Source: a virus
Lineage: Duplodnaviria; Heunggongvirae; Uroviricota; Caudoviricetes
IMG/VR virus record: IMGVR_UViG_2693429557_000019
Direction: 5' to 3' (one strand)
Length of the DNA: 30,436 nucleotides
Each line of letters begins with the position of its first letter. Position 1 is the first letter of the stretch. The notes beneath the pieces were generated by a model. It saw nothing but the letters and a program-made list of their open reading frames with translations, ran no database searches and was not told where the DNA came from. Below are positions 301 through 29,664 of the stretch, in pieces. The position numbers were made by a program, and so were the translations under genes.

Positions 301-1464
301 TCACTCATCATCTTCTGTTTCGTACTCCACATCAGAAAGCCTTACCTCAAGCTCCAAGGACGTCGTGAAGCCGCTATTATTGAGACAATGTGTCACCTTA
401 GTGATGGTCCAGTCCTGCTCGTCTATGACGCGCTTAAAGCCTGACACTTTAACCGGTGTTTCCGTGTAAATATCTGCACGACCGGTAGCCAGGCTGATGG
501 AGAACTCCGCTACACCCCGTTGCAGTTTATCCCACTTCGCCTGAGCGGCGCGCATGGCCTGCGCTTTTGTGGCATATACCGTGGTCAGGGCAAAAACGTT
601 GTCAGCTTCACCGGCCATGTATTCACCTTCGCGCGCTTCCGGTACTTTTGGCGCTTTCTTCTGCGTGACCGGTTTCGCTTTCGGGTGCTCCAGTGCGCGC
701 AGGTGTTTTTCTTTCTTTTTGCGTTTCAGTTTTACCTTCTGCTTTTGCGGCTTCGGGTCTTTGGTGTGTAACCACTTTGCCGTTACGCCGGTGTAAGCTC
801 CACGGTCAGCAATCGCAAAATGATGACGGTCGCCGTCGCTGCGGGTGATGGTAATCTGCGGGATTTTTTTACCGCTGGCCGTCACCCCCTGCCCCGCTTT
901 GAGAAACAGCAGTTTTCCCATTTTTACCGACACCTCGCCGCCGTTGCGTTCAGCAAGACGGGTCAGGAATTTCGCATCAGACTCCTGCGACTGGTCGATG
1001 TGTGGAATTTTTATTCCGGCCAGTGACGGAGCGACACTGGCTTCCAGCCTGTTACGGGAGGCTATCGCCTCAACAATCGCACCGAGCGTAATGTCATGCC
1101 ATGAGCCTTCACGGCGGGAATTGAGCGTCCCGCGAAAATCTGCACTCCGGGCGCGGATGGTGACCACATCCGGCGCGCCCCGGTGTTCAACCTCATCAAC
1201 GGTAAATTTCCCTTTGCATACCAGGGCAAAACCTTTCCAGCCGATATACACCGTCAGGACAGCGCCACGAACCGGCAGCCCGACCTGCCCGTCGGCATCG
1301 TTCAGTTCAATATCAAGCTGGTCAGCCTCAAAGCCCCGGTTATCCGTCAGGGTCATGCTCATCAGACGGTCGCTGATATTGCCGGTAATATCCCTGCTGT
1401 CGAGCATCAGCATGTAATCCGGCGTCAGCGTACTGCCTGCATCAAATGTCAGCGCATCCAGCAT
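301..1464 (-). CDS. D: Tail protein D (late control gene D family), 387 aa
   Basis: Full-length ORF of 387 aa, matching the size I recall for P2 gpD. Position U-D-ogr is syntenic with P2. Start overlaps the gpU stop (ATGA). Confidence 0.9.
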   Translation of the reverse strand: MLDALTFDAGSTLTPDYMLMLDSRDITGNISDRLMSMTLTDNRGFEADQLDIELNDADGQVGLPVRGAVLTVYIGWKGFALVCKGKFTVDEVEHRGAPDVVTIRARSADFRGTLNSRREGSWHDITLGAIVEAIASRNRLEASVAPSLAGIKIPHIDQSQESDAKFLTRLAERNGGEVSVKMGKLLFLKAGQGVTASGKKIPQITITRSDGDRHHFAIADRGAYTGVTAKWLHTKDPKPQKQKVKLKRKKKEKHLRALEHPKAKPVTQKKAPKVPEAREGEYMAGEADNVFALTTVYATKAQAMRAAQAKWDKLQRGVAEFSISLATGRADIYTETPVKVSGFKRVIDEQDWTITKVTHCLNNSGFTTSLELEVRLSDVEYETEDDE

Positions 1465-1957: not shown

Positions 1958-4405
1958 TTAACCGTCATGCATCATGCTGGCACGGGCGCGCGCACGTTTA
2001 TCCCGCTCGTATTTTTCGAGCGCATCCTGTAACTGGCGGTCAAGCTGTGTCCCCGGTGCAGTACCACCCGTCAGGCTGATGTGATATTCGTTTTTACTCT
2101 GGTCCACATAAGAGCGGCCAGCCGGTGCCGTGACCGGCTGATAAGCCTGATAGCCTGCATAAGAGCTGGTCGCCGGAATATAACCACCGGTGCCATACGT
2201 GGCGGCATGAGTTCTGGCGGCGGTCTGGTCAAGTGTGTCTGACTCTTTGTTGATGACCCCGAGCTTTTCCAGTACCCAGTCAATGCCGCTGCGCAATTTG
2301 TTGAACGCATTAAGCGGCAGCATCAGCGCGTCAGCCAGTGCCTGCCCGAACATGACGCCCGTGTCACGGCAACGGTTCAGGGTGTCCTGGGTGGCTTTGA
2401 CCGGGGCAATCAGGTTTTTAAACCACTGCCACGCAGCCTGTAACTTTTCGCCCAGCCAGTCAAACACCGGTTTCAGTGGCGTGAACAGCTCCCCCACCGG
2501 CGCAAATGCCGCTTTCAGCCCTTCAACCACACCGCCAAAGAATGCGCTGACAGGCTCCCAGTATTTACGGATAAGCAACGCCCCGGCGACAATGGCGGCC
2601 ACCACAGCCACAACCGGCCAGCTAATCGCCCCGATGGCCGTCATAACGGCACTACCAACCGTCGTGAAGATTGCCCCCATTGCGCCTGCTGCCGCGATGA
2701 TGGCATTGATGCCGGTGATAACCGGCCAGGCTACAAGACCAATTGCACCGATGATGCCAGTCAGCGCCAGCGCGCCACCGGCAATGAGGCCAATGGTTGA
2801 CGCCAGTGATTTGTTTTTCTGTACCCAGCCGTCGAGTTTTAACACATACTTTGTGGCCGTCTGCGTGAGCTTACGTAGCGCGCCTTCCTGCTGGTCAAAC
2901 AGGTCTGTCCCCACCGCCTCATAAGCGGACTGAAACTCCTTAAAGTCACCGCCGAGGTTGTCCTGCATGATATTTACCAGCTCTGCGGTCTTCCCGTCTG
3001 AGGCTTTAAACGCAGCGGTCAGTTTGTCCAGCTTTCCGGTTGACGCGGCAGTCATCAGCACAGCGGCGGCTGAGCTGGCCTCCTCCCCGAAAATGGTTTT
3101 CATGTATTCGGCCTGCTGGGCAGTACCGAGCCGGTTTTTCTCAAAGCTGGCCTGCATTTCTTTCAGAATGGTAAATACTGGTCGGGTGTTTCCCTTACTG
3201 TCTGAGGTTTTCACGCCAAGCTCTTTGAGTGCATCCCATGCTTTTCCAGTCGGTGCCTGCAGGCGACTTAACACGGCACGGCTTCCCGTCCCCGCCATTG
3301 AGCCTGTGATTTTTGCATCATGCAGCGCCCCGACCATTGCGGCGGTTTCTTCAATGCTGACACCGGCATTTTTTGCCACTGGTGCGGCATAGGTCAGCGC
3401 ATCGCTCATGCCGTCAAAATCAGCGGCGGTTTTGTTCATCGTCATGGAGAGAACATCCCCGATATGAGCGACCTTATCGTTTGAAAGCTGAAAGGCGGAT
3501 TTCATCCCCATCAGCAGGGCGGCGTTTTCTTCCATTGTGCGGCGGTTCGCCAGCGCCATATTCAGCGTGACCGGCGTTGCCGCCTGAATGGCATCAACAT
3601 CCCCACCCGCTTTCGCAATGATAATCTGTGCACCGGCCGCATCATCCGCTGAGGCGGCGGTGTTGTCACCGAGCTGGCGCGCCTGCTTGCGGAGTGCAGC
3701 CATTTCGGCGGAGTCTTTTGCCACACCGAGCACAGCCTGCAATTCTGAGTTTTTCTGCGCAAACTCATAACCTGGCATCAGCAGCTTAACTCCGGCTATC
3801 GTTCCCGCAGCAGCAATCCCCACACCGGCAGCGCCCACTGAGGCCATATTTCCGGCCAGTTCCTTTCCGGCCTGATAACGCTGTTTGACTGCGTTAAGTT
3901 TTGCCTGTTGCGCACTGACACGCGCCAGCGCGTCACGCTGCCGGTTAAGCTGGGCGGTGGTTTCACTGATACGGTTTTTCAGTCCCTGCTCATCATGTGC
4001 AAGATTGCGGGTATTAATTCCCACAGCGGCCAGTTCCCGCTGCTGGCGTTTAACGGAATCTGTCAGGCGGTTATATTTCGCCTGTAAGTCCTCCGCCGCA
4101 CGCTTTGCGGATTCCAGCACTTTCGCCTGAGCACGGGTCGGGCGTTCGGTGTTTTTAAACTGTGTGGCAAGGGCTTCGGCCTCCTGCCGTGCCTTTTCAA
4201 GTGCATGACCAGTCACGGCGAGCTGTGCACTGGTCTTGCGGAATCCCTCAATACGGGATGCGTGACCGTTCAGCTCGCGCAGTGATTTTTGTGTTTCCCG
4301 GATATCCCCCGACAGCAACTTACTCGCTCTGCGGATGGATTTAAACGGGCGGGACGCCTGGTCAACAGCCCTGAGCAATACCTGTAATTTTACATTGTTA
4401 CTCAT
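1958..4405 (-). CDS. T: Tail tape measure protein T, 815 aa
   Basis: 815-aa ORF with a coiled-coil N-terminal region and Gly/Ala-rich hydrophobic stretches typical of tape measure proteins. Follows E/E' as in P2. Start ATG at 4403-4405 overlaps the E' stop. Confidence 0.9.
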   Translation of the reverse strand: MSNNVKLQVLLRAVDQASRPFKSIRRASKLLSGDIRETQKSLRELNGHASRIEGFRKTSAQLAVTGHALEKARQEAEALATQFKNTERPTRAQAKVLESAKRAAEDLQAKYNRLTDSVKRQQRELAAVGINTRNLAHDEQGLKNRISETTAQLNRQRDALARVSAQQAKLNAVKQRYQAGKELAGNMASVGAAGVGIAAAGTIAGVKLLMPGYEFAQKNSELQAVLGVAKDSAEMAALRKQARQLGDNTAASADDAAGAQIIIAKAGGDVDAIQAATPVTLNMALANRRTMEENAALLMGMKSAFQLSNDKVAHIGDVLSMTMNKTAADFDGMSDALTYAAPVAKNAGVSIEETAAMVGALHDAKITGSMAGTGSRAVLSRLQAPTGKAWDALKELGVKTSDSKGNTRPVFTILKEMQASFEKNRLGTAQQAEYMKTIFGEEASSAAAVLMTAASTGKLDKLTAAFKASDGKTAELVNIMQDNLGGDFKEFQSAYEAVGTDLFDQQEGALRKLTQTATKYVLKLDGWVQKNKSLASTIGLIAGGALALTGIIGAIGLVAWPVITGINAIIAAAGAMGAIFTTVGSAVMTAIGAISWPVVAVVAAIVAGALLIRKYWEPVSAFFGGVVEGLKAAFAPVGELFTPLKPVFDWLGEKLQAAWQWFKNLIAPVKATQDTLNRCRDTGVMFGQALADALMLPLNAFNKLRSGIDWVLEKLGVINKESDTLDQTAARTHAATYGTGGYIPATSSYAGYQAYQPVTAPAGRSYVDQSKNEYHISLTGGTAPGTQLDRQLQDALEKYERDKRARARASMMHDG

Positions 4406-4825
4406 TCGTGTTTCCGCTTCGCCTGAGCGCCTTTTCGCGCCATGTGATGAGTTCGGTCAGGCTCATGGGATACAGTTCTGATGGCGGCCAGTGAAATATC
4501 ACTGCCACATCCGCCATCAGGTCATCGACCGACAGATTTTTCGGAAGCGTCACTGCACCGAGTTCGGCGACAAAAAACCGACCACCTTACCGGCCAGCGC
4601 CACAAGGTCAGGCAGTTCCAGCGCGGCGACTTCCTGCTCGGTCAGCATCGGTGCCGTCATGCGCGGCAGCACCTTAATCAGTGCATCGACTTCTGAGTTT
4701 GCGACCGCAGCCAGACTGACACCGCGCAGCGTCCCCGCACTGGGTTTCATCAGCGTGACCTGTTCGATAACCTGCTCACCACGCTTGACCGGATTGTCCA
4801 GGGTAATCACATTTTCTTTGTTCAT
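4398..4825 (-). CDS. E+E': Tail assembly chaperone E+E' fusion made by -1 programmed ribosomal frameshift (about 142 aa)
   Basis: Hand translation of the minus strand: a -1 slip on T_TTT_TTG (plus-strand 4571..4577) continues VAELGAVTLPKNLSVDDLMADVAVIFHWPPSELYPMSLTELITWREKALRRSGNTNE to a TAA at 4398..4400, which overlaps the T start codon. Total length about 142 aa, the size I recall for P2 E+E'. Confidence 0.75.
4550..4825 (-). CDS. E: Tail assembly chaperone E (zero-frame product), 91 aa
   Basis: 91-aa ORF directly upstream of T and downstream of FII. Ends just after a TTTTTTG heptamer, as in P2 gene E. Confidence 0.85.
   Translation of the reverse strand: MNKENVITLDNPVKRGEQVIEQVTLMKPSAGTLRGVSLAAVANSEVDALIKVLPRMTAPMLTEQEVAALELPDLVALAGKVVGFLSPNSVQ
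4571..4577 (-). promoter_or_regulatory. Slippery heptanucleotide T_TTT_TTG for the E/E' -1 programmed frameshift
   Basis: Plus strand reads caaaaaa, i.e. TTTTTTG on the coding strand, in the X_XXY_YYZ register of the E reading frame. Confidence 0.7.
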
Positions 4826-4881: not shown

Positions 4882-5400
4882 TTACAGGCCGATATTGCGG
4901 CGGTGTTGCTCCAGCCGGTCGACGCCGTTCACCTTCTCAATCATGTTGATGGTGTCGATTTCGACCAGCTCCTTACCGTCCATCGTCAGCCGGAAATAGG
5001 TGCAGACCACGGAGATTTTCGACTCGGTGTCTTCTCCCTGTTTACCCTCGCCGGTGTCGATTTCTTTCTGACGGCCACGCATGACCACCTCTACGGCCAC
5101 CGTTTCGCCGGTATCGTCACGCTGGTAAGAGCCTGCAAAACGAATCGGCACGGCATCCACACCGGTTGCGGCGTAAAGCTCCCAGATAACCGAATCCGGG
5201 AAGCCCCCGAGCGACCACTCCATTGACAGCGCATCGTCATCAAGGCCGAGGTCTACCGGTGCGCTTCCGTTCATCCCCGCACCGCGATAGTTTTCGAGTT
5301 TACGGGTCAGTTTTGGCAGCGTGACGGACTTTGCAACGCCCTGATAGCTGTAGCCGTTCAGAAAGACGTTCATTAACTTGAGTTTGCGCGGCATTGCCAT
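4882..5400 (-). CDS. FII: Major tail tube protein FII, 172 aa
   Basis: 172-aa ORF; size and position (FI-FII-E-T) match P2. Confidence 0.9.
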   Translation of the reverse strand: MAMPRKLKLMNVFLNGYSYQGVAKSVTLPKLTRKLENYRGAGMNGSAPVDLGLDDDALSMEWSLGGFPDSVIWELYAATGVDAVPIRFAGSYQRDDTGETVAVEVVMRGRQKEIDTGEGKQGEDTESKISVVCTYFRLTMDGKELVEIDTINMIEKVNGVDRLEQHRRNIGL

Positions 5401-7013: not shown

Positions 7014-8432
7014 ATGACATACGCACTGATTGATAATTCAACTCTAACTGCAGTCCAAAGAATCGAGGGGAAAGTAAAAACAAGATCGAAGGACTCAGTA
7101 GATACAGACATAATAGCATTTGAGAACTATATACAGTCTATTTTGTTCTATGATCACGTTATCGCGGTTGATGATTATATTCCAGAGTACCGTGGGAGTA
7201 GGATTTCAAGTTTCAGAGAGATATTATTTCTTGATAAAGCACAATATGGGTTGGATGAAATTGAAAGTGAAGCAAAAAAAATATCTGATGCATTGAAACC
7301 TAAAATTCGTGGTGGAACATTTGTTAATGACGATTTTAAAAAACTAATTGAACTTCTTCAGACACATATCATATGTACATGGGACATTAGTTCAAGTGTT
7401 TATCATCTAACACTGAAGAACTTATCTGATGGAGGTAAGGAGTTTGAAAAATATGGTAACATTGCTGCTGCCATTTTTTCAGAACTGCGTGATGCTGCTG
7501 AGTCTGGTAATAGAACAAATGGCGATGTTGAACTTCTCGATCGATTTGGCAACCCTATTCGCAAGGGGTACAAAGTTCCCGGAGCAAAATGGGGGGATGG
7601 CACATCTGCTGGTGAAGCATCAGATGCAATCAAAGCATTCGTGGCTTCGCTTGTATGGCTGGCTAATCGGGCAGTATTTTATTCTCTCACAGCTAAGTAC
7701 CTTCAAGCAGATACTTTTTTATATCCATTACGTCAGGCGTATCAACAGACATATTTAAGCCAAAACTGTCAGTATGGTTTTGACTATGCTAAACATATTG
7801 TAGAAAACTTTTCCACTTCGTTAAGTCATGATCTCATTGATATTCATTCTGGTGGTAAAGCTGTAGCAACAGCAACTTCGCTTCCTTTATTTTCGGCATG
7901 GCTCGCAAAAGAAACTGGTGATCCAAGTTGTATTGTTGAAGCTGCTTATAACATAAGGGACAACAACGAATTTGTAAGGGCCCGTGAGAAAATGCGAGAA
8001 ATAAAGCGCTTGTTTGATGAAAATGAATTGCCTCAAGCTAATAAGTCAGTAAGAGCATTGCTTACTGAAGTATCGAAAGAATCAGATTATATTCGAACTA
8101 AGTATGGGCTCAAGACTAGACAAGGTGTACCTGTAACTAAGCTTGTACATGTATACAATACTGTTGCGGCTATTAATTCCCTTCCGAAACTACCGACCTT
8201 TAATTTTAAAGTTAAAGTTCCTGATTTCTTATATGATCTTAAAAAACCCAAGGGGTTTCGTGCTCTCTATCGAAATTTGACTAATGATCTTTCTACTGTG
8301 TGGTCGTTAGGAGAAGCTCGAGATATTCTTGGAAGTAAAGTTGTGATAGATAATCATGCAAGAATTTACAGTCCGAAGCATGAAGAACCGCGTTTCAAAA
8401 ACTCTCATTCCCCATATAAGAGCCCGATGTAG
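7014..8432 (+). CDS. Hypothetical 472-aa protein, AT-rich cargo gene at the FI/G (Z/fun) variable locus
   Basis: Long uninterrupted ORF on the strand opposite both flanking phage operons. Visibly lower GC than flanking phage DNA. Own promoter-like elements and RBS. I recognise no catalytic motif and no resemblance to a P2 protein. Confidence 0.8.
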   Translation: MTYALIDNSTLTAVQRIEGKVKTRSKDSVDTDIIAFENYIQSILFYDHVIAVDDYIPEYRGSRISSFREILFLDKAQYGLDEIESEAKKISDALKPKIRGGTFVNDDFKKLIELLQTHIICTWDISSSVYHLTLKNLSDGGKEFEKYGNIAAAIFSELRDAAESGNRTNGDVELLDRFGNPIRKGYKVPGAKWGDGTSAGEASDAIKAFVASLVWLANRAVFYSLTAKYLQADTFLYPLRQAYQQTYLSQNCQYGFDYAKHIVENFSTSLSHDLIDIHSGGKAVATATSLPLFSAWLAKETGDPSCIVEAAYNIRDNNEFVRAREKMREIKRLFDENELPQANKSVRALLTEVSKESDYIRTKYGLKTRQGVPVTKLVHVYNTVAAINSLPKLPTFNFKVKVPDFLYDLKKPKGFRALYRNLTNDLSTVWSLGEARDILGSKVVIDNHARIYSPKHEEPRFKNSHSPYKSPM

Positions 8433-18102: not shown

Positions 18103-19175
18103 TTACGCTCCCGGCTCTGCGGTCGCTTTAGCCGGTGTGGAGAAATCACCGACCTTAATTTTTTCCACCAGACAACCGGCGGCGTAGTCCTCCACCACGT
18201 AATCAATGTTCATTGACTCGTAGTTCTCCACGCGGTCGAGTTTCGGGTTTTCCACAATCACGCGGCGATGGCTGTCATCCATGTAGTAGATGGACAGGTT
18301 TTCCAGCTTCGTGATGAGCATCGCATCCGCCGGGAAGTACGGGACGCGTACCGCCGGCAGGTTACCGATGCGTTTCTGGCTGATGATGACGTCAGCGGCC
18401 AGCATCTCGCTGTTATCCTGCTCCTTGTTGACGATAGGGAAATACTTGTCCGCCAGTAGCTGACGCCCCACAATCACCACAAGGTCAGGGTCTTCCTGAT
18501 ACCAAGGTTCAATCAGGTTGTTGGTCGCATCCATCACCAGTGCATCGAGGCTTACATAATCACCGCCCTTACCCACGCGGATAACCTCAGAGGTGGTGCG
18601 GCCTTCCTCGTCAGTGACCTTGCTCATCACGCGCGCCGGGGCTTCATTCGGTATTTCTGCAGCCAGCCGACCGCCACATCCTGCAGCATCGGATTACTGT
18701 TGCGGTCAGAGGTTTCGGCACGCTTCACGCCGTTAAAACCGGCCATGATGAAATCAAGGGACTGGCGTTTGATAATGGCGTTACGGATACGGAGCTGGAA
18801 ATCCTGATAACGCGCCCACAGGTCAAGCGTTTTGTAGCGGATATAAAAATCGAAGTTAACCTGGTCGCATTCGTACTTGTTTGACGCCAGCTTCGAGAAG
18901 TCCTTCGGCTGACGCTCGGTGCCACCGGCGGTGTCGGTGGTGCTGGCGATGGAGCCGGTGACACCGATGCCAATTTTTTCCCCTTTCATTTCACTGACCG
19001 GCACAATGTTGATGCGGGTCAGAAAGTCAGAGGACTCCTGCATGGTGTTCATCAGGGTCTGGGTGACCGACGGTTCAACGGTGAATTTTTTCGACACATC
19101 ACCGGCGTCGATGCCGTTCAGCTCGGCAACACGGGACAGGTAAGCATTAAATTTAAAGCGGGTTTCCTGGCGCAT
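18103..19175 (-). pseudogene. N: Major capsid protein N, disrupted by a 1-nt frameshift (two ORFs of 182 aa and 175 aa)
   Basis: Two adjacent same-strand ORFs (18627..19175 and 18103..18630) in different frames together give about 357 aa, the size I recall for intact P2 gpN. The upstream ORF ends LQKYRMKPRRA-stop while the other frame reads NEAPARVMSKV across the same nucleotides, so a single missing base near plus-strand 18647..18648 accounts for the break. Confidence 0.75.
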
Positions 19176-19233: not shown

Positions 19234-20088
19234 TCAGCAGTTCGTCATCAGGGCGTCACCGCCACCACCGGTGGCCTTGCTGCGGCGCTGCTGGGTCAGA
19301 CTTTCGGTGTGGTCGAGACTGTTTTTCAGGCGGGTGAATGCCTGGCTGGTTTCATCCGCCCTGTCAGTCACCTCCTGCTTAAGTGCAGAAAAGGCGGTTT
19401 CCATCTCAGCGAGGCGCTGCTCAGTGGCGCTCAGTTTTTCCTGCACATGTTCAGCAACAGCGGTCACCGCTTCATGCACGTCATTCAGACGGGCATCATC
19501 GCTGGCCTGTTTGCGGCCAAAAATGGATTTCACCTTTTCGGTCAGGGCGGTGAACACGGTTTCAGGCAGGTCTTCAAATTCCAGCTCAACAGGCGTTGCC
19601 ACTGAAATCAGGTTTTCAGGGCTTAATTTGAAGCGGTTCAGGGGGTTGTGTTTTGCCGTGCGGCAGAATTCCAGGTATTCCGTGCCGAGGCTTGCCGGGT
19701 CATCGGTGACGGCCAGACCCACCAGATAACATTTGCCGGTGTTGGCAAAGTTCGGCTGAATTTCCATTGAGGTGTAGACCTTCTGCGCGGCCTTGTTCAT
19801 CGCGATAAGGTCATCGGTCGGGGTGATTTTCGCAAACAGCGCCCATTTGCCTTTCAGCGCCGAATCATCGTCAATCTTTTCGGCCTTCAGTTCGGCCACA
19901 TCGCCATAACGCTTAAAAATACCGTCAGGCAGGATGCCGCGCAGATGTTCCAGGTTAATGCGGCAACCATAGACACGCGGGTCAAAGGTTTCGGCCATTT
20001 CCTGAATATCCTGCGCACTGATGACACGCCCGTCACAGGTGTCACCCTCAACGCCGATACGAAAGAATTTTGAGACTTTTTTTGCCAT
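19234..20088 (-). CDS. O: Capsid scaffolding protein O, 284 aa
   Basis: ORF trimmed to the Met at MAKKVSKFF (cat at 20086..20088), giving 284 aa as I recall for P2 gpO. Divergent from P, as in P2. Confidence 0.85.
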   Translation of the reverse strand: MAKKVSKFFRIGVEGDTCDGRVISAQDIQEMAETFDPRVYGCRINLEHLRGILPDGIFKRYGDVAELKAEKIDDDSALKGKWALFAKITPTDDLIAMNKAAQKVYTSMEIQPNFANTGKCYLVGLAVTDDPASLGTEYLEFCRTAKHNPLNRFKLSPENLISVATPVELEFEDLPETVFTALTEKVKSIFGRKQASDDARLNDVHEAVTAVAEHVQEKLSATEQRLAEMETAFSALKQEVTDRADETSQAFTRLKNSLDHTESLTQQRRSKATGGGGDALMTNC

Positions 20089-23254: not shown

Positions 23255-23439
23255 CGCCCGCTTCATGGGGCGGTTTTAATGCAGTTGCATGAACACTCCA
23301 AGAGCACGCCAGCGCTAGTGATAACTAACAATAAAAGCGACTTCTGACGCATGCAAATCCATGCACATGATGGCATTTTTCATGATCTATGCGGTATGCT
23401 ATCCGCTTCAATTTTTAACACTTGTTAAGGGAACTAGAC

Positions 23440-24582
23440 ATGGACATTATTGATTTAAAATCTCAACTAGAAAATGAAGATAATGCCAAGAAAAGAGCAG
23501 AGTTGCTTGCTCAGCTAGAGGTGATAAAGCAAAACGCTGAAGAGCAAATTCGTGCTGAGCAAAAGGATGTGGATTTTGAGACCAAAGAATTTACCGTTGA
23601 GTTATTAGTTAATAAGTATCATAACGGATTAGAGGATGATACTAACGAACTCTTTGTTCCTGATTATCAAAGGGATTTTGTTTGGAGTGAAAAAAGACAA
23701 TCAAAATTGATAGAGTCTTTGATTTTGGGTTTTCCTATACCATATATATTTATAGCAGATGTTCTCTCCGAAGATCCCGATTTAGATGGGCGAATTGAGA
23801 TTGTTGATGGCTCACAACGAGTTAGGACTATACACGCTTTTATCCAAAATGAATTAGTTTTACAAGACCTGAAATCTTTAGACGTCCTTAATGGTTTCAA
23901 ATTCCAAGATTTACCATTATCACGTCAACGTCGTTTCATGAGAATTCCTGTCCGCGTTATAGAATTGAGTTCTAAATGCAATGAAGAAACCCGTAGAGAT
24001 CTTTTTGAGCGTATTAACTCTGGCAGCGATATATTGAAAGATATGGAAGTCCGTAAAGGATCAGAACTTGGTTCAACAAATTTATATACACAGGTTATTA
24101 AGCCATGCTCAACAATACCTAAATTTAAAGAATTAGCACCTTTATCTCAGACTAAAGAAAAACGAGATGAACGGTTAGAATTTACATTAAGATTCTTTGC
24201 CTACGTAGATAAGTACAAGAACTTTGATCATTCCGTACGGGATTTTCTAAATGACTATATGTCAGAAAATCGAGATATAGACGAAACTAAACAAAACTCA
24301 ATGAAACAAGAGTTTGCTAATGTTCTATCTTTTGTTGAAAACTATTTCCCAGCAGGATTCAAGAAAACTATTACTGCAAAATCTACACCTCGAGTTAGAT
24401 TCGAATCTCTCGCTGTTGGCGCAGCACTTGCATTACGTGAAGTCCCTGACCTTGTTCCCAAGAACTTAGATTGGCTAAGCTCAGAAGAATTCAAACGATT
24501 GACCACTTCCGACGGAGCTAATAGTCGCGTGAAGGTAATTGAACGAATTGAATATGTTCGGGATAAATTATTAGAGGATTAA
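23440..24582 (+). CDS. DUF262 / ParB-like domain protein (GmrS-like N-terminal domain, no recognisable HNH/DUF1524 nuclease), 380 aa
   Basis: Contains VPDYQRDFVWS and IVDGSQRVRTI, which fit the (I/V)PxYQRxxxW and DGQQR signatures of the DUF262 ParB/Srx-fold domain. N-terminal coiled-coil. AT-rich. Start taken at the ATG at 23440, 8 nt after an aaggga Shine-Dalgarno (the ORF track begins at a TTG at 23422). Confidence 0.85.
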   Translation: MDIIDLKSQLENEDNAKKRAELLAQLEVIKQNAEEQIRAEQKDVDFETKEFTVELLVNKYHNGLEDDTNELFVPDYQRDFVWSEKRQSKLIESLILGFPIPYIFIADVLSEDPDLDGRIEIVDGSQRVRTIHAFIQNELVLQDLKSLDVLNGFKFQDLPLSRQRRFMRIPVRVIELSSKCNEETRRDLFERINSGSDILKDMEVRKGSELGSTNLYTQVIKPCSTIPKFKELAPLSQTKEKRDERLEFTLRFFAYVDKYKNFDHSVRDFLNDYMSENRDIDETKQNSMKQEFANVLSFVENYFPAGFKKTITAKSTPRVRFESLAVGAALALREVPDLVPKNLDWLSSEEFKRLTTSDGANSRVKVIERIEYVRDKLLED

Positions 24583-24583
24583 C

Positions 24584-25264
24584 ATGGATCGTTTTCGTGA
24601 GGATTTTGACGAAAGGTCAGGAGAGATCTTGGCCTATTTGGATCTTTTGAAATTTATTGAGTATGCCGGTGCAGAACTGATATCAGCTGATGATAAAGAA
24701 CATAAGTTCTCCATTACTGCTCAATCACGAAAAACTCTAAAGGGAGCAGTATATATACTGTTATATAACCTCATTGAATCAACAATGAGAGAAGCTATCT
24801 GCCTTATTCATGAGACTATTTATGATAGAAACGTAGAATTTGACAAACTCAGGAAAAATCTCAGGTCAGAAATATTAAAAAGATTAAAAAATGAATCTGT
24901 AAATGTTGAAAGTTTAGTTAATCACCTTACCAAAGGTATATCTTGCGGTATATCTTATGGCACGTTCAACAAAAAGAAAATATTCTCAGGAAATATTGAT
25001 AGAGAGGAAATCAAAGAAAAATCGAAAATATATGGTTTTTCTACACATTCCGATTACACTCACACTAAACATGGTGAAAAATTAGCCACTGTTAAACAAC
25101 ATCGTAATGATTTATCTCATGGCAATGTATCATTTGCTGAGATTGGAAAAAATGTTTCATATCAGGACTTAGAGAATATTTCATTAGAAGTAATCGCCTA
25201 TCTTGATGCTATCGTGAATAATATAGAGCACTATATAAATAATAATGAATATTTAGAACAATAG
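24584..25264 (+). CDS. Putative HEPN-domain protein (Rx4H motif), 226 aa
   Basis: Translationally coupled to the upstream gene: TAA at 24580..24582 and ATG at 24584, with agagga 6-11 nt upstream. C-terminal region carries HRNDLSHG, fitting the HEPN R-x4-6-H motif. AT-rich. The HEPN call is motif-based inference only. Confidence 0.7.
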   Translation: MDRFREDFDERSGEILAYLDLLKFIEYAGAELISADDKEHKFSITAQSRKTLKGAVYILLYNLIESTMREAICLIHETIYDRNVEFDKLRKNLRSEILKRLKNESVNVESLVNHLTKGISCGISYGTFNKKKIFSGNIDREEIKEKSKIYGFSTHSDYTHTKHGEKLATVKQHRNDLSHGNVSFAEIGKNVSYQDLENISLEVIAYLDAIVNNIEHYINNNEYLEQ

Positions 25265-25270
25265 TTATAA

Positions 25271-25294
25271 GGCCTGTAAAGCAGGCCATTTTAT
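25271..25294. terminator. Candidate bidirectional terminator between the convergent HEPN gene and the methyltransferase gene
   Basis: Stem ggcctg / caggcc with a 5-nt loop, followed by attttat on the plus strand and an A/T-rich stretch on the other side. Sits exactly between the two convergent stop codons. Confidence 0.5.
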
Positions 25295-26319
25295 CATTCT
25301 AAATGGTTCTTGATTGATTGCCCAATTGCTTTTCCTAGTTCCACAGGAACAGCATTACCTATCATTTTCCCAATACTTCTTATAACAAACTTGTTTTTGT
25401 CTTCTACAAAAATATAATCCATCGGGAAAGTTTGCAATAAAGCAGCCTCTCTAAGAGAAATCGCTCTATGCTGTTCTGGATGTCCAAAACGCCCATTCCC
25501 GAAACCATAACAAAGAGTTGTAATTGTTGGACTTGGCTTATCCCAAGACATGCGCCCATATACACTAGCATACCCTTTACCGCTGGATTTCATATGACAA
25601 GCGGCAACCAACTCTTTCGGCCAGTCCTTCCATGTACCACCAGGAACAGAGTGTATAATTCTTTTTTTATTAATCGGATTTAATTTACTGGCTCTATGTA
25701 ATATATCATTTGGATCTGTTTGGCCATCTTCTAATGGAGGAAGATTTCCTATTGCATCTCTAACTGTTTTCAAAATAACATCGTCACGTTTTACTAACTC
25801 AATCGCCCCCAATTTTGAGGCCAACAATACATGACGGGAACGGTTTTGTGGGATTCCATATTCGACACAATCAATCTTAGACGCCCAAACATAATAGCCC
25901 AACTTTAACAATGAATTATAAAAATCATTATAAACTTTATGTTTAGTTACATCAGGAACGTTCTCCATTGTTACGATTTCTGGAGATACTTCGCGAATTA
26001 AACGTTCGAACTCATAAAGAAGAGGCCATTTTTTATCATCAGCCTTATCTTTTCCTTGAGTATATTTTGAAAAAGGTTGGCAAGGTGCGCATCCTGCCAA
26101 TACTTTTACAGACGCATCACCATAAAGCCTCAGCAGTTCCTCTTTTGTTACTTTAGCGATATCTTGCTCAATAAACTTAGATTTATTGTTTCTTTCATAG
26201 GGAAACCTACATTCCCCCTCAAGGTCAATGCCTGCAACGACATCAAGCCCCGCAAGCTGCAAACCATGAGTTAATCCGCCAGCACCACAAAAAAGGTCTA
26301 TCACCTTTACAGTCATCAC
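25294..26319 (-). CDS. DNA (cytosine-5)-methyltransferase, 341 aa
   Basis: Conserved C5-MTase motifs seen in the translation: FCGAGG (motif I, AdoMet binding), GCAPCQPFS (motif IV with catalytic Pro-Cys), ENVPDV (motif VI) and QNRSR (motif VIII). AT-rich. Confidence 0.9.
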   Translation of the reverse strand: MMTVKVIDLFCGAGGLTHGLQLAGLDVVAGIDLEGECRFPYERNNKSKFIEQDIAKVTKEELLRLYGDASVKVLAGCAPCQPFSKYTQGKDKADDKKWPLLYEFERLIREVSPEIVTMENVPDVTKHKVYNDFYNSLLKLGYYVWASKIDCVEYGIPQNRSRHVLLASKLGAIELVKRDDVILKTVRDAIGNLPPLEDGQTDPNDILHRASKLNPINKKRIIHSVPGGTWKDWPKELVAACHMKSSGKGYASVYGRMSWDKPSPTITTLCYGFGNGRFGHPEQHRAISLREAALLQTFPMDYIFVEDKNKFVIRSIGKMIGNAVPVELGKAIGQSIKNHLE

Positions 26320-26402: not shown

Positions 26403-27896
26403 TTAACGCTTCACTGAGTTTGACTCTAATACTGTTGAGAATCCCGACCACTCATCAGCGAGCGGGTAAGTGAATTTTTTCCCGTCATAATTTACGGTTG
26501 CCCCACGCGCCAGCACCTCAAGCTCCCATCGCTGCGGCCTGATACCGTTCTGAGCAAGGTCAACGCGGATACGGGTAATTTGCATTCGTTCCGACCGGGT
26601 CAGTCTGGCCGATGGCGCTATTTCATGCGGTTTTAACGGGCTTCCGTTTCTTTGCTGACGGTTTGGTCTTCTCAGTCCGTGTTTTAATGCACCTCTGAGC
26701 GCCCTCACAACCTCCGGGTCATTCCATTCGATAACACCGTCATCTACCAGATTAAGCACTGCTGCGGCGTGCTCAGAAGGTGTGGGAGCCGGTAACGAAG
26801 TATCACCACCAGTGAGCTTTCCACAGTTATTGACAGGACTCCGAGGCGCGGCGATGCCGCTTTTTAAAGTCAAAGGCTCAACGACCGGCACTTTCGGAAC
26901 AATGCGCCAGTCCGTCGTTCTGGTGATATGAATATGACGCGCGCCGAGATGCGGCGCGTAAATGCCGACCACTCTCTCGACTTCTTCCTCGTACTCGTTA
27001 ACTTCATCCGACGGACTACGGGCGACCCTGACAGTCTGACAATCGCGCGGGACATTTGCCCCACCCTGCGCGCTGATATACAGCGCAAAATCACCACTGT
27101 CTGCGGCGGCGCGTGCAGCCTCGACGCGCTCGTCAAACTCATCAGCAATGCTGACGCCGCGAGGCAATTTGCGTAGTTCACGGTAAGCCCCCATTGTCGG
27201 CAGGCCAACCGTTTTAAATTGCGGAATGCGCCACGTTGACGCCCATGCGGTAACAGCCGCGGCAGTATCTTTCAGCGGTCTGCCGCTATCGTTATCGAGC
27301 TGCCCATCCAGTGCATAGCCGTCGATATTTTTTGAGATGTATTTCGCGATATACCCCGCAGCACCGCCCCGATTAAGATGTTTTGCCTGAAAACGGTTTC
27401 GCGCAGCTCCTCTTTCGTCGCCATCCTCTTTGAGCGCGTAGCGACGCATGATTTCGATAATCTGGTTACGCTGGCGTGGATTACAAAAAAGCATCATATG
27501 CCAGTGCGGCGTTCCGTCGTGGTGTGGCTCGACGACTCGCAAACCGTAGACCTGTAAATCATTATCCTTGAATGCCGTGCGCATCAGGCTCCAGATACGG
27601 CAGAGATAACGCTGCGCATCCTTTGGATTAAATGCCTCATCGTTCCAGCCGTGATTTAGCTGGACGGTTTTACTTTCGCCTTTTCCAACCTGACGTGTCG
27701 GGTGATACTTTGACGGCGCGGTCAGCGTGATAAACATCCCCACATCACCTTCTGCGGCGGCGTAACGCTCAATACCGGCAATGGTGTTCATCAGCTCCAT
27801 CCGGCGAATTTCAGGATTAGAAATACTGCCCATCACCTTACTGATAAGGTCGATGCGCTCGCCTGTTTCCCTGTTTTCGAGATCACACGATTTAAG
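26403..27896 (-). pseudogene. A: Replication initiation protein A (rolling-circle HUH endonuclease), 5'-truncated at the IS21-family junction
   Basis: ORF carries the HUH motif (TPHWHMMLF) and a Tyr/Lys motif (YIAKYISKN) of Rep-type nickases. It is 526 aa against about 761 aa that I recall for P2 gpA. The first roughly 28 codons of the ORF-track ORF (to 27983) are read through IS-end tandem repeats and are not genuine gene A sequence. Junction placed near 27897 from memory of the P2 gpA sequence. Confidence 0.7.
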
Positions 27897-27910
27897 ATGC
27901 AAAATGGCAT

Positions 27911-28025
27911 CTGAATCGATCGCAGTTTGGCATTCGAATCGATCATGATTTGGCATCCATCTCCGATCACAGTTTGGCATCACAATCGATCACGATTTGG
28001 CATACTTCCGATCATTGATTGGAAT
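27911..28025. repeat. Five tandem 22-24 bp direct repeats (consensus about cgatcaNNRtttggcat), probable multiple terminal repeats of the IS21-family left end
   Basis: Units end in ttggcat at 27933, 27956, 27980 and 28003, and in ttggaat at 28025. A diverged sixth copy (aaaatggcat) ends at 27910. The array lies immediately upstream of istA. Confidence 0.6.
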
Positions 28026-28098
28026 TCGCCAGTCACTCCGGGAATTAACTCTTTTCACCACAGTCTCCATTGCCGTGTTTAAACCAGTGGAGACGTCA

Positions 28099-29664
28099 AT
28101 GTCCAAAAAGAGAAAATCCAGGAGCACTATGGAAACTTGTTTTAAGATCCTTCAGCTCAAGTTCGATAAGAAGCTGACTAACCGTTGTATCGGACTGACG
28201 TTACACATCAGCGCCTCAACCGTTTTTGAGGTTCTTGCCCGCTTCAAAGCCTCTTCTCTGTCATGGCCATTACCTGCGGATATATCCCATGACACGCTGG
28301 AGAAACTCATTTTCCCGCCCAAAGACACCTCTGCGTCAGAGCTTGTTATGCCTGACATGCTGTACTTCGATACGGAAATGAGAAAACCTGGCGTGACGCG
28401 CCAACTGTTGTGGATGGAATACAAGGCACAGGCGGGTGACAAAGCGATGGGATACTCACACTTCTGCCGTTGCTACCGGAAGTGGAAAAAAACGCGACGC
28501 CTCTCCATGCGACAGGAGCATCGTGCTGGCGAAAAGCTCTTTATCGACTTCTGTGGTCCTACGGTCCCTGTTATTAATCCGGACACCGGAGAGATACGCC
28601 GCGTGGCAATCTTCGTGGCTGTAATGGGGGCGTCCAACTATACCTATGTTGAAGCGTGCGAAGGTCAGGACATGATGTCATGGTTAAATGCCCACAGCCG
28701 TTGCCTGACCTTCCTGGGCGGCGTACCGAAGCTGCTCATCCCCGATAACCTCAGAAGCGCAGTGAAAAAAGCCGATCGCTATGAGCCTGTCATCAACGAC
28801 AGTTATCAGGCGCTGGCTGAGCACTATGGCACGGTTATTATCCCGGCCCGCCCGCGCAAACCTAAAGATAAACCAAAAGCAGAAAACGGCGTCCTCATCG
28901 TCGAGCGATGGCTTCTTGCCCGCATCCGTAATGAAACCTTCCACACGCTCAGGGCGCTGAATGCACGCCTTCGGGAGTTGCTGACGGACATGAATAACCG
29001 ACCAATGAAGGGATACGGTAATCAAACCCGCGCAGAACGCTTCCGCATGCTGGATGCACCAGCACTCTCTCCGCTGCCTCTGGAGCCTTATGAATACACG
29101 GAATACAAAGCCGTGAAGGTTGGCCCTGACTACCACGTTGAATATGCCCGTCACTGGTACTCCGTTCCACACGAACTGGTCGGTCAGCGTCTGTCACTGA
29201 AGGTGGGGCAGTCGGTGGTACAGCTCTGGCACAAGGGGCAGTGTGTGGCGCAACATCCGCGCAGCACACATGAATATAAACACACAACCAATCCGCTTCA
29301 CATGCCAGAACGCCACCGGCGGCATGGGACATGGACACCGGAACGCCTTATCGAGCAGGGAAACCGTACAGGTCCGTCCACAGGCCGGGTGGTTGAATCC
29401 ATGCTGAAAGCCAAACCCCATCCGGAGCTGGCTTACCGTGCAGTCCTGGGTCTGCTGGCACTTCAGAAAAAATACGGCCCGGAACGGCTGGAAAAGGCCT
29501 GTTACGTTGCCCTGCACTATAACGCCCCGGACAGACGCTTTATCGACAATCTGCTGCGTCATCATCGGGATAACGTTGAGCTTCCGTTATCCCGCCAGGG
29601 CGAACAACATCCGGCATATGCTTCAGAGCATGAAAACCTGCGTGGTCCTGGCTACTACCACTGA
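28099..29664 (+). CDS. istA: IS21-family transposase IstA (DDE), about 521 aa
   Basis: N-terminal basic/HTH-like region. Candidate DDE residues in FIDFCG, LLIPDN and AENGVLIVERW. Followed 16 nt later by istB. Start taken at the first ATG (MSKKRKS) of the ORF-track ORF, which begins at a TTG at 27997. Confidence 0.85.
   Translation: MSKKRKSRSTMETCFKILQLKFDKKLTNRCIGLTLHISASTVFEVLARFKASSLSWPLPADISHDTLEKLIFPPKDTSASELVMPDMLYFDTEMRKPGVTRQLLWMEYKAQAGDKAMGYSHFCRCYRKWKKTRRLSMRQEHRAGEKLFIDFCGPTVPVINPDTGEIRRVAIFVAVMGASNYTYVEACEGQDMMSWLNAHSRCLTFLGGVPKLLIPDNLRSAVKKADRYEPVINDSYQALAEHYGTVIIPARPRKPKDKPKAENGVLIVERWLLARIRNETFHTLRALNARLRELLTDMNNRPMKGYGNQTRAERFRMLDAPALSPLPLEPYEYTEYKAVKVGPDYHVEYARHWYSVPHELVGQRLSLKVGQSVVQLWHKGQCVAQHPRSTHEYKHTTNPLHMPERHRRHGTWTPERLIEQGNRTGPSTGRVVESMLKAKPHPELAYRAVLGLLALQKKYGPERLEKACYVALHYNAPDRRFIDNLLRHHRDNVELPLSRQGEQHPAYASEHENLRGPGYYH

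Follow-up and report, generated by a model that had tools for sequence, protein, structure and literature searches.

A P2-type E/E+E' frameshift cassette predicted in a P2-like prophage of Escherichia coli

The segment that separates the tail tube gene FII from the tape measure gene T in a P2-like E. coli prophage raises the question of whether gene E yields only the protein that ends at its own stop codon, or also a longer E+E' product made by programmed -1 frameshifting. An earlier note on the 30,436-nucleotide stretch of viral DNA analysed here (IMG/VR record IMGVR_UViG_2693429557_000019, the whole of which we call the window) had claimed that a T_TTT_TTG heptamer sits in the correct register near the 3' end of E, and that a 57-codon extension follows in the -1 frame with no early stop codon. 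Translation confirmed these claims at the positions listed in Table 1, with the correction that all of the features lie on the minus strand. We consider it very likely that the segment is the P2 E/E+E' tail-assembly-chaperone recoding cassette, intact in sequence, within a P2-like (Peduovirus) prophage.

The E/E+E' cassette and its likeness to phage P2

Gene E contains a single TTTTTTG, which begins at the third position of a codon (GG[T TTT TTG]). The -1 frame becomes open 9 nt before the heptamer, giving an overlap window of 34 nt between the two frames, and with the G at 4571 re-read its 57 codons translate as VAELGAVTLPKNLSVDDLMADVAVIFHWPPSELYPMSLTELITWREKALRRSGNTNE. Residues 7–85 of the E product match Pfam family PF10109 Phage_TAC_7 (E=1.4e-12, 47.8 bits, cutoff 25), and the product also matches PHROG 103, 'tail protein' (1e-42). 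The earlier note had made homology of the extension to E' proteins a point on which its reading could fail; the extension matches PF06528 Phage_P2_GpE (E=2.2e-22, 78.7 bits, cutoff 23) and PHROG 1756 (1.5e-28). A search of NCBIfam with the fusion and the extension returned no family. The ORF list and the Pfam matches place the cassette between FII and T, and the tail genes that flank it are all full length.

Table 1. Coordinates of the cassette and of neighbouring features in the window
Feature	Position	Strand	Remarks
Gene E, zero-frame product (tail assembly chaperone)	4825..4550	minus	ORF list; 91 aa; stop TGA 4552..4550
Slippery heptamer T_TTT_TTG, X_XXY_YYZ register	4577..4571	minus	E codons 83–85 of 91, Gly-Phe-Leu
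E' segment, -1 frame	4571..4398	minus	57 sense codons 4571..4401 + TAA 4400..4398
Composite E+E' coding region	4825..4398	minus	predicted 142-aa fusion = 85 zero-frame + 57 -1 frame codons
Gene T, tape measure protein, 815 aa	1958..4405	minus	ORF list; PF10145 PhageMin_Tail 1.8e-45
Gene FII, tail tube protein	4882..5400	minus	directly upstream of E; PF04985 Phage_tube 2.3e-60
Hairpin, predicted (10 bp + 6 bp), within E' coding sequence	4478..4520	minus	50 nt 3' of heptamer

In the mechanism that we propose, the majority of ribosomes would stop at the TGA of E, having made the 91-aa chaperone gpE. In a minority, the P-site tRNA-Phe (on UUU) and the A-site tRNA-Leu (on UUG) would both move back by one base on U_UUU_UUG. 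Decoding would then restart at GUC in the -1 frame and add 57 residues, giving a 142-aa E+E' protein of about 15.5 kDa with the junction ...G-F-L-V-A-E..., and the junction peptide expected from ribosomal -1 slippage would be VVGFLVAELGAVTLPK. From the analogy to lambda G/GT we would expect the shared E domain to coat the tape measure protein T and the rare E' domain to recruit the tail tube protein, with the ratio of the chaperones fixed at many to few. We infer slippage in the window's copy, its efficiency and these protein-level roles from the sequence.

The E/E+E' frameshift has been known in P2 since 2002, the primary experimental paper reportedly being that of Christie and colleagues of that year, and the window's copy of it is ordinary. 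The earlier note had named the arrangement as that of the P2 tail assembly chaperone pair and proposed an alignment to P2 E+E' as a check, and the comparison agrees with it throughout. The P2 cassette (NC_001895, 19430..19857) is equal in length (428 nt) and 98% identical in nucleotide sequence, differing at nine of the 428 positions. Eight of these substitutions are synonymous, seven at third codon positions and one at a first position (AGG/CGG), and the ninth is a conservative exchange of L and F. P2 gpE (NP_046781.1 and NP_046780.1 are listed for E and E+E') has the same amino acids as the E of the window, and the predicted fusion is identical at 141 of 142 residues to the deposited P2 E+E' (NP_046780.1; UniProt O64312, 'Tail assembly protein E''). 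The sole difference, in fusion numbering, is Leu94 in the window and Phe in P2, and the -1 extension is identical to P2 E' at 56 of 57 residues. The heptamer, its register and the flanking 11 nt are all identical in the two, as is the gene order FI-FII-E-T-U-D. Unlike P2, the window's prophage carries other cargo genes and has lesions in N and A.

The curated P2 record describes 'E+E', shares amino terminus with gpE; -1 frameshift; essential tail protein', and places the frameshift site directly after the homologous heptamer (misc_feature 19685, one base past its G). Translation of the P2 DNA with tandem slippage reproduces the deposited E+E' sequence exactly. We rejected the junction GFLF, which coordinate 19685 might imply: the deposited protein corresponds to the GFLV translation, and the GFLF variant is absent from the protein collection. 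A secondary summary (PMC3091744) gives a shift at TTTTTTG that leads to a 91-aa E and a 142-aa E+E' in P2. That both gpE and gpE+E' are synthesised and essential to tail assembly is knowledge of P2, taken from its curated record and from PMC3091744, and would apply to the window by analogy.

Conservation of the slippery site and of -1 frame coding

The motif by itself is not unusual. TTTTTTG was observed 13 times in the window, with 8.2 occurrences expected, and the 32 listed genes together hold 32 in-register X_XXY_YYZ heptamers, which is near the expectation of 1/256 per codon. Only in E does such a heptamer open a -1 frame that outlasts the zero-frame stop by 20 codons or more, in this case by 50. 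The decisive evidence that the site exceeds chance is its conservation in relatives.

Related loci were sought starting from an alignment of five sequences. An in-register slippery heptamer together with a conserved -1 extension is present in all 14 divergent Peduoviridae (30–70% amino acid identity). The heptamers listed across divergent members of the family are TTTTTTG (nine times), TTTTTTT (twice), and TTTTTTC, GGGAAAG, CCCTTTC and AAATTTT (once each). The extensions of the 14 range from 51 to 71 aa and have A105, D106, F111, E125, W129, A133 and R136 invariant. T_TTT_TT(G/A) is found in 79 of 79 analysable IMG/VR loci. In 62 distinct close relatives the heptamer and nucleotides 247–257 of the cassette (GGTTTTTTGTC) are invariant, a stretch that includes three zero-frame third positions; the mean third-position entropy in these relatives is 0.73. 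Across the site the variation by codon position flips from frame 0 (0.18/0.11/0.73) to frame -1 (0.16/0.10/0.47). Because the site is conserved across the family, the arrangement itself is under selection.

These relatives also bear on the possibility that E' is an independent small gene, which would start at the GTG 4553..4551 and encode a 51-aa 'GpE family phage tail protein' with no fusion to E. The ORF 4553..4398 does exist in the program-made ORF list, RefSeq genomes annotate precisely this stand-alone CDS, and in the protein collection at least 999 contigs carry its product. However, the GTG is kept in 28 of the 62 distinct close relatives, the rest having GTA, TTA, CTA or ATA at this position. 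Where it is missing, the first start is an ATG 18 or 36 nt downstream (nucleotide 291 or 309, as against 273), and in 34 of the 62 no other start codon precedes the first -1 frame ATG. The codons 5' of this downstream ATG nevertheless keep the variation of a -1 coding frame, with values of 0.28/0.13/0.68 between the E stop and the ATG. Other phage annotations put the start of E' at differing, non-homologous codons, in 120-nt CDSs for example. An independent gene would leave the invariant in-register heptamer unexplained, and the product in the curated P2 record has the amino terminus of gpE. We therefore regard an unfused E' as very improbable.

The sequence of the run itself invites another explanation, in which RNA polymerase adds one U in the T6 run and a single-frame E+E' results, with the junction G-F-F-V-A-E (VVGFFVAELGAVTLPK). 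The run at this site is homopolymeric, T6 in the window and T7 in ST79 and in a Zymomonas element, and the sequence of the window alone does not separate polymerase slippage from ribosomal slippage. However, efficient transcriptional slippage in bacteria usually needs runs of about 8–9 or more. Relatives with the same architecture have heteropolymeric heptamers, namely G_GGA_AAG in PHL101, C_CCT_TTC in Kp4846-1 and A_AAT_TTT in Ec503458. Such heptamers cannot support polymerase stuttering and fit tandem tRNA slippage, which counts against a transcriptional origin. In addition, tandem slippage, unlike polymerase slippage, requires the run to keep its register with the E frame, and this register is strictly conserved. 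We give the polymerase explanation very little credence.

That the cassette is a relic or a coincidence in a decaying prophage, whose N is frameshifted and whose A is interrupted by an IS element, has a negligible probability in our view: only nine of 428 nt differ from P2, eight of them synonymous and one a conservative L/F exchange, the neighbouring tail genes are full length, and the family-wide conservation of the site shows that the arrangement is selected.

The prophage that holds what we take to be an intact recoding cassette appears to be defective elsewhere. The capsid gene N has an apparent 1-nt deletion near position 18649 and the replication gene A has an IS21-family insertion, and in view of these lesions expression of the cassette from this copy may be rare or absent. 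Because P2 is not SOS-inducible, and because of the lesions in N and A, an induced lysate, in which the earlier note suggested a search for the junction peptide, would be a poor test here.

Surrounding RNA elements and the junction with gene T

No unusual structure was found in the first 50 nt 3' of the heptamer (-12.6 kcal/mol, compared with a shuffle mean of -11.8; z=-0.37), and a search of Rfam returned no family at threshold. Farther downstream, a 101-nt fold that contains the predicted hairpin 4520..4478 has a z-score of -3.0. This hairpin is present in P2 and in a 186-like phage. In ENT90 the same peptide is encoded, and the hairpin is abolished by synonymous changes. We rejected the hairpin as a frameshift stimulator on account of this loss and of its distance of 50 nt from the site, and it probably lies outside the frameshift signal. 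On the 5' side, an SD-like AAGGTGG ends 5 nt before the heptamer. Stimulation of -1 frameshifting by SD-like elements is described at a spacing of about 10–14 nt, and a stimulatory role of AAGGTGG is doubtful.

The site of the window may be compared with that of E. coli dnaX (A_AAA_AAG), which has an upstream SD-like element and a downstream hairpin. The two would share tandem -1 slippage of bacterial ribosomes on a homopolymer-rich heptamer. Unlike the dnaX type, the window has no hairpin or pseudoknot at the usual 3' spacing of 5–9 nt; its nearest strong hairpin starts 50 nt downstream and is not conserved. For P2, PMC3091744 likewise reports the absence of a stimulatory RNA element.

The junction between E' and T reads ATGAGTAA, with the ATG of T at 4405..4403. 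The earlier note had the TAA of E' overlapping this start codon. This is not the case: the TAA begins 2 nt past the ATG without touching it, and it is the E+E' and T ORFs that overlap, by 8 nt. P2 has the same 8-nt overlap, from the T start at 19850 to the E+E' end at 19857, and the same ATGAGTAA. The zero-frame stop of E lies 144 nt upstream of the T ATG, whereas the -1 frame stop lies 2 nt past it, and the sole SD-like element upstream of T is a weak GGA. As we read the junction strings of 15 loci (the window and 14 relatives), the E' stop overlaps or abuts the start of the tape measure gene, at -14 to +2 nt, in 12 of them. It is conceivable, though unlikely, that translation of T is coupled to the rare frameshifted ribosomes by termination and reinitiation at ATGAGTAA. 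Were this so, both the E : E+E' ratio and the dose of tape measure protein would be set by the rate of frameshifting.

Comparison with lambda G/GT and annotation of the cassette

Tail chaperone frameshifts of the lambda G/GT kind are said to have been described as a conserved arrangement by Xu, Hendrix and Duda in 2004. The analogy to this pair that the earlier note had drawn is sound with respect to the order of genes, which is that of lambda G/T/H. In the window, two overlapping ORFs joined by a -1 slippery site occupy the interval from the tube gene to the tape measure gene, as is typical of lambda-like cassettes; the lambda pair is flanked by the major tail protein gene and the tape measure gene. 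Lambda G/GT (G_GGA_AAG) comprises two products with a common N-terminus, as is predicted for the window, and the shift site lies only a few codons from the end of the upstream ORF: codon 134 out of 140 in lambda, 83–85 out of 91 in the window. The overlap of the -1 ORF with the tape measure gene is also 8 nt in lambda, where T/H reads ATGGCTGA and the window reads ATGAGTAA. In contrast, the lambda extension has 144 codons rather than 57, the heptamers differ, and the lambda tail is that of a non-contractile siphovirus whereas that of P2 is a contractile myovirus tail.

BLASTP against lambda gpG and gpT gave no alignment at E<=100, and hhalign of a 14-sequence profile against lambda T gave a probability of 1.4%. 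Judged from these comparisons, the relation to lambda G/GT is one of analogy and synteny, with no demonstrable homology. An AlphaFold2 model of the fusion, built from a single sequence, has a mean pLDDT of 60, with the E' part below 50. Foldseek with this low-confidence model found no match in the PDB at E<=0.001, and phmmer found nothing among PDB sequences.

Automated annotation had been expected to miss the fusion, and it does. RefSeq/PGAP annotations of E. coli list a 'phage tail assembly protein' and a separate 51-aa 'GpE family phage tail protein', with no joined CDS, and the window's fusion is absent from the protein collection, which does contain the stand-alone product. In the window, E should be annotated together with a joined CDS (4825..4571 + 4571..4398, minus strand), in place of the stand-alone call. 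The scientific weight of this copy is small, the frameshift having been described in 2002 and the DNA being 98% identical to P2. Its practical value lies in annotation: pipelines widely call the 51-aa 'GpE family' CDS on its own, and over half of the close relatives that we examined lack the GTG at which it is made to start. Of 5,426 complete E. coli genomes, 1,582 contain homologous cassettes.

The E/E' cassette and its counterpart in P2

Within the tail assembly chaperone gene E, the first T of the only TTTTTTG heptamer is the third base of the Gly83 codon, GG[T TTT TTG], which sets the heptamer in X_XXY_YYZ register, the requirement for tandem -1 slippage. When the G at 4571 is read twice, translation enters a -1 frame of 57 codons (VAELGAVTLPKNLSVDDLMADVAVIFHWPPSELYPMSLTELITWREKALRRSGNTNE). 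All features of the cassette are on the minus strand. An earlier note had proposed, from the sequence alone, a correctly phased heptamer near the 3' end of E and a 57-codon extension without an early stop; the codon-phase check agrees with the first point, and the 57 codons are indeed open to the TAA. The same note had this TAA overlapping the start codon of the tape measure gene T. At the E'/T junction, which reads ATGAGTAA, the TAA actually follows the T ATG by 2 nt, and it is the open reading frames alone that overlap, by 8 nt. This is the sole inaccuracy of the description: the observation is confirmed, its interpretation is supported, and the frameshift feature is already known.

Coordinates of the E/E' cassette and other features of the window
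Feature	Coordinates	Strand	Remarks
Gene E	4825..4550	minus	91 aa
Slippery heptamer TTTTTTG	4577..4571	minus	single occurrence within E
TAA stop of -1 frame	4400..4398	minus	E+E' fusion of 142 aa
Tape measure gene T	1958..4405	minus	ATG at 4405..4403
SD-like AAGGTGG	4583..4589	minus	5 nt 5' of heptamer
Hairpin, 10+6 bp	4520..4478	minus	50 nt from heptamer
472-aa ORF	7014..8432	plus	between FI and G, opposite strand; P2 Z/fun cargo position
Major capsid gene N, split	18103..19175	minus	ORFs 19175..18627 and 18630..18103
Cargo block	23422..26319		after portal gene Q; P2 old/tin position
Replication gene A, truncated	27983..26403	minus	matches Phage_GPA positions 133-321 only
IS21-like ISSso4-family element	from near 27898, past window end (30436)		istA 27997..29664 (+), then istB

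The 601 bases that surround the site have matches in 74 phage records, with identities of 95-99%; all are P2-like (Peduovirus) phages infecting Escherichia, Yersinia, or Salmonella. The P2 reference record (NC_001895) has a homologous stretch of 428 nt, 19430..19857, with annotated E and a two-piece E+E' CDS ('shares amino terminus with gpE; -1 frameshift; essential tail protein'); its T starts at 19850. The window differs from P2 at nine of the 428 positions; six changes lie in the E-only part, all at zero-frame third positions, and the gpE amino acids are identical. Alignment of the predicted fusion to P2 E+E' gives a sole difference at residue 94, Leu in the window and Phe in P2. Tandem-slippage translation of the P2 DNA reproduces the deposited NP_046780.1 (UniProt O64312, 'Tail assembly protein E'') exactly. 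An alternative GFLF junction for the P2 fusion is absent from the protein collection, and the deposited protein fits tandem slippage.

Pfam places fusion residues 7-85 in Phage_TAC_7 (PF10109) and the -1 part in Phage_P2_GpE (PF06528, E=2e-22), so that the extension does have E' homology; PHROGs assignments concur. The neighbouring genes encode tail tube (PF04985) and tape measure (PF10145) proteins.

Of 5,426 complete E. coli genomes, 1,582 carry the cassette. The RefSeq rows inspected all show two separate products from the PGAP pipeline, 'phage tail assembly protein' and 'GpE family phage tail protein'. Because the protein collection records the 51-aa stand-alone product (on at least 999 contigs) and not the window's fusion, the remark that automated annotation usually misses the fusion was right.

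Conservation and context of the heptamer

The heptamer alone is not rare: TTTTTTG has 13 occurrences in the window, where 8.2 would be expected. Across the window's 32 genes there are 32 in-register X_XXY_YYZ heptamers, close to the expectation of 1/256 per codon. Only that of E opens a -1 frame at least 20 codons beyond the zero-frame stop, and it does so for 50 codons. The argument thus rests on context and conservation, not on the motif.

We compared fourteen other Peduoviridae: a P2 variant whose gpE shares 93% of its amino acids, and thirteen phages at 30-70% whose hosts span Salmonella, Burkholderia, Ralstonia, Pseudomonas, Shewanella, Zymomonas, Mannheimia, and Vibrio. All fourteen carry an in-register slippery heptamer inside a short stretch open in both frames (TTTTTTG nine times, TTTTTTT twice, and TTTTTTC, GGGAAAG, CCCTTTC, and AAATTTT once each), followed by a -1 extension of 51-71 aa. 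Residues A105, D106, F111, E125, W129, A133, and R136 are invariant across the aligned extensions. Among 80 IMG/VR viral contigs, T_TTT_TT(G/A) is in register at 79 of 79 analysable loci. In 62 distinct, ungapped sequences of close relatives, nt 247-257 (GGTTTTTTGTC) are invariant, against a mean entropy of 0.73 at the other zero-frame third positions of E, and variation has a three-base periodicity that follows frame 0 upstream of the site (0.18/0.11/0.73) and switches to frame -1 past it (0.16/0.10/0.47).

One IMG/VR relative, IMGVR_UViG_2695420821_000010, has the full cassette together with a 100%-identical second copy, at a distance of about 6 kb, spanning fusion residues 1-105 only; this copy could stem from duplication or from misassembly.

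Mechanism, RNA signals and the lambda comparison

Slippage of ribosomes by -1 on U_UUU_UUG would best explain the fusion. Transcriptional slippage, in which polymerase stuttering would make it, is disfavoured by the sequence comparisons: some relatives have heteropolymeric heptamers that cannot support such stuttering, and the run keeps strictly the same register. That E' starts independently, at the GTG used by PGAP (4553), is unlikely, as that position is a start codon in only 28 of the 62 close relatives, and the stretch upstream of the next ATG still varies as -1 frame coding sequence.

The first 50 nt 3' of the site fold like shuffled sequences (z=-0.37), and an Rfam search matched no family. 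The missing stimulatory structure agrees with a literature summary (PMC3091744), according to which P2 has no stimulatory hairpin. Farther downstream, a strong hairpin (CUGAUGGCGG...CCGCCAUCAG; z=-3.0 for the 101-nt fold) sits in the codons for the conserved E' motif DLMADVAVIFHWPPS; it is kept in P2 and a 186-like phage, and lost in ENT90 despite the same encoded peptide. The GGTG core of the SD-like AAGGTGG, two of whose bases are zero-frame third positions, hardly varies among the 62 close relatives. The spacing of this element looks too short for a classical -1 stimulatory SD.

By analogy with the model for the lambda tail assembly chaperones G/GT (reviewed in PMC5009743), E would coat the tape measure protein, and recruitment of the tube protein would fall to the E' end. 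The two systems share synteny, including the 8-nt overlap at the tape measure start, but no detectable sequence homology. The single hhalign alignment to lambda gpT has a probability of only 1.4% and is not significant; it pairs E' residues 117-131 (motif ELYPMSLTELITWRE) with gpT residues 24-38 (MLAGMSSTEYADWHR; lambda 1185..1229) at 40% identity across 15 columns.

State of the prophage and its cargo

A P2-like prophage, most of which is in the window, runs ogr-D-U-T-E-FII-FI ... O, P, Q and continues with cargo genes. The word 'intact' used in the earlier note is true of the cassette, not of the prophage. The two N reading frames cover Phage_cap_P2 positions 1-170 and 178-327 (Pfam); what splits them, compared with intact N genes of P2-like phages, is the loss of 1 nt near 18649 (the C in GAAATACCG[C]AATGAAG). 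This deletion is either an error of sequencing or a true frameshift that inactivates N. Gene A is truncated by the IS21-family element, and the prophage therefore looks replication-defective. Given the lesions in N and A, expression from the window copy would need transactivation; the induced lysate proposed in the earlier note is unlikely to work.

The 472-aa reading frame, without a match in Pfam or PADLOC, could represent an uncharacterised gene for cargo or defence; the same gene in the E. coli HCM-28C-2 prophage is a 'hypothetical protein' (WP_000220361.1). The cargo block encodes a GmrSD_N/DUF262 protein (PADLOC NsnA, 1.7e-54; PD-T4-2_A, 2.5e-35), an adjoining HEPN_MAE_28990 protein and, on the other strand, a C-5 cytosine DNA methylase. 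A related prophage in HCM-28C-2 carries other cargo at the old/tin position.
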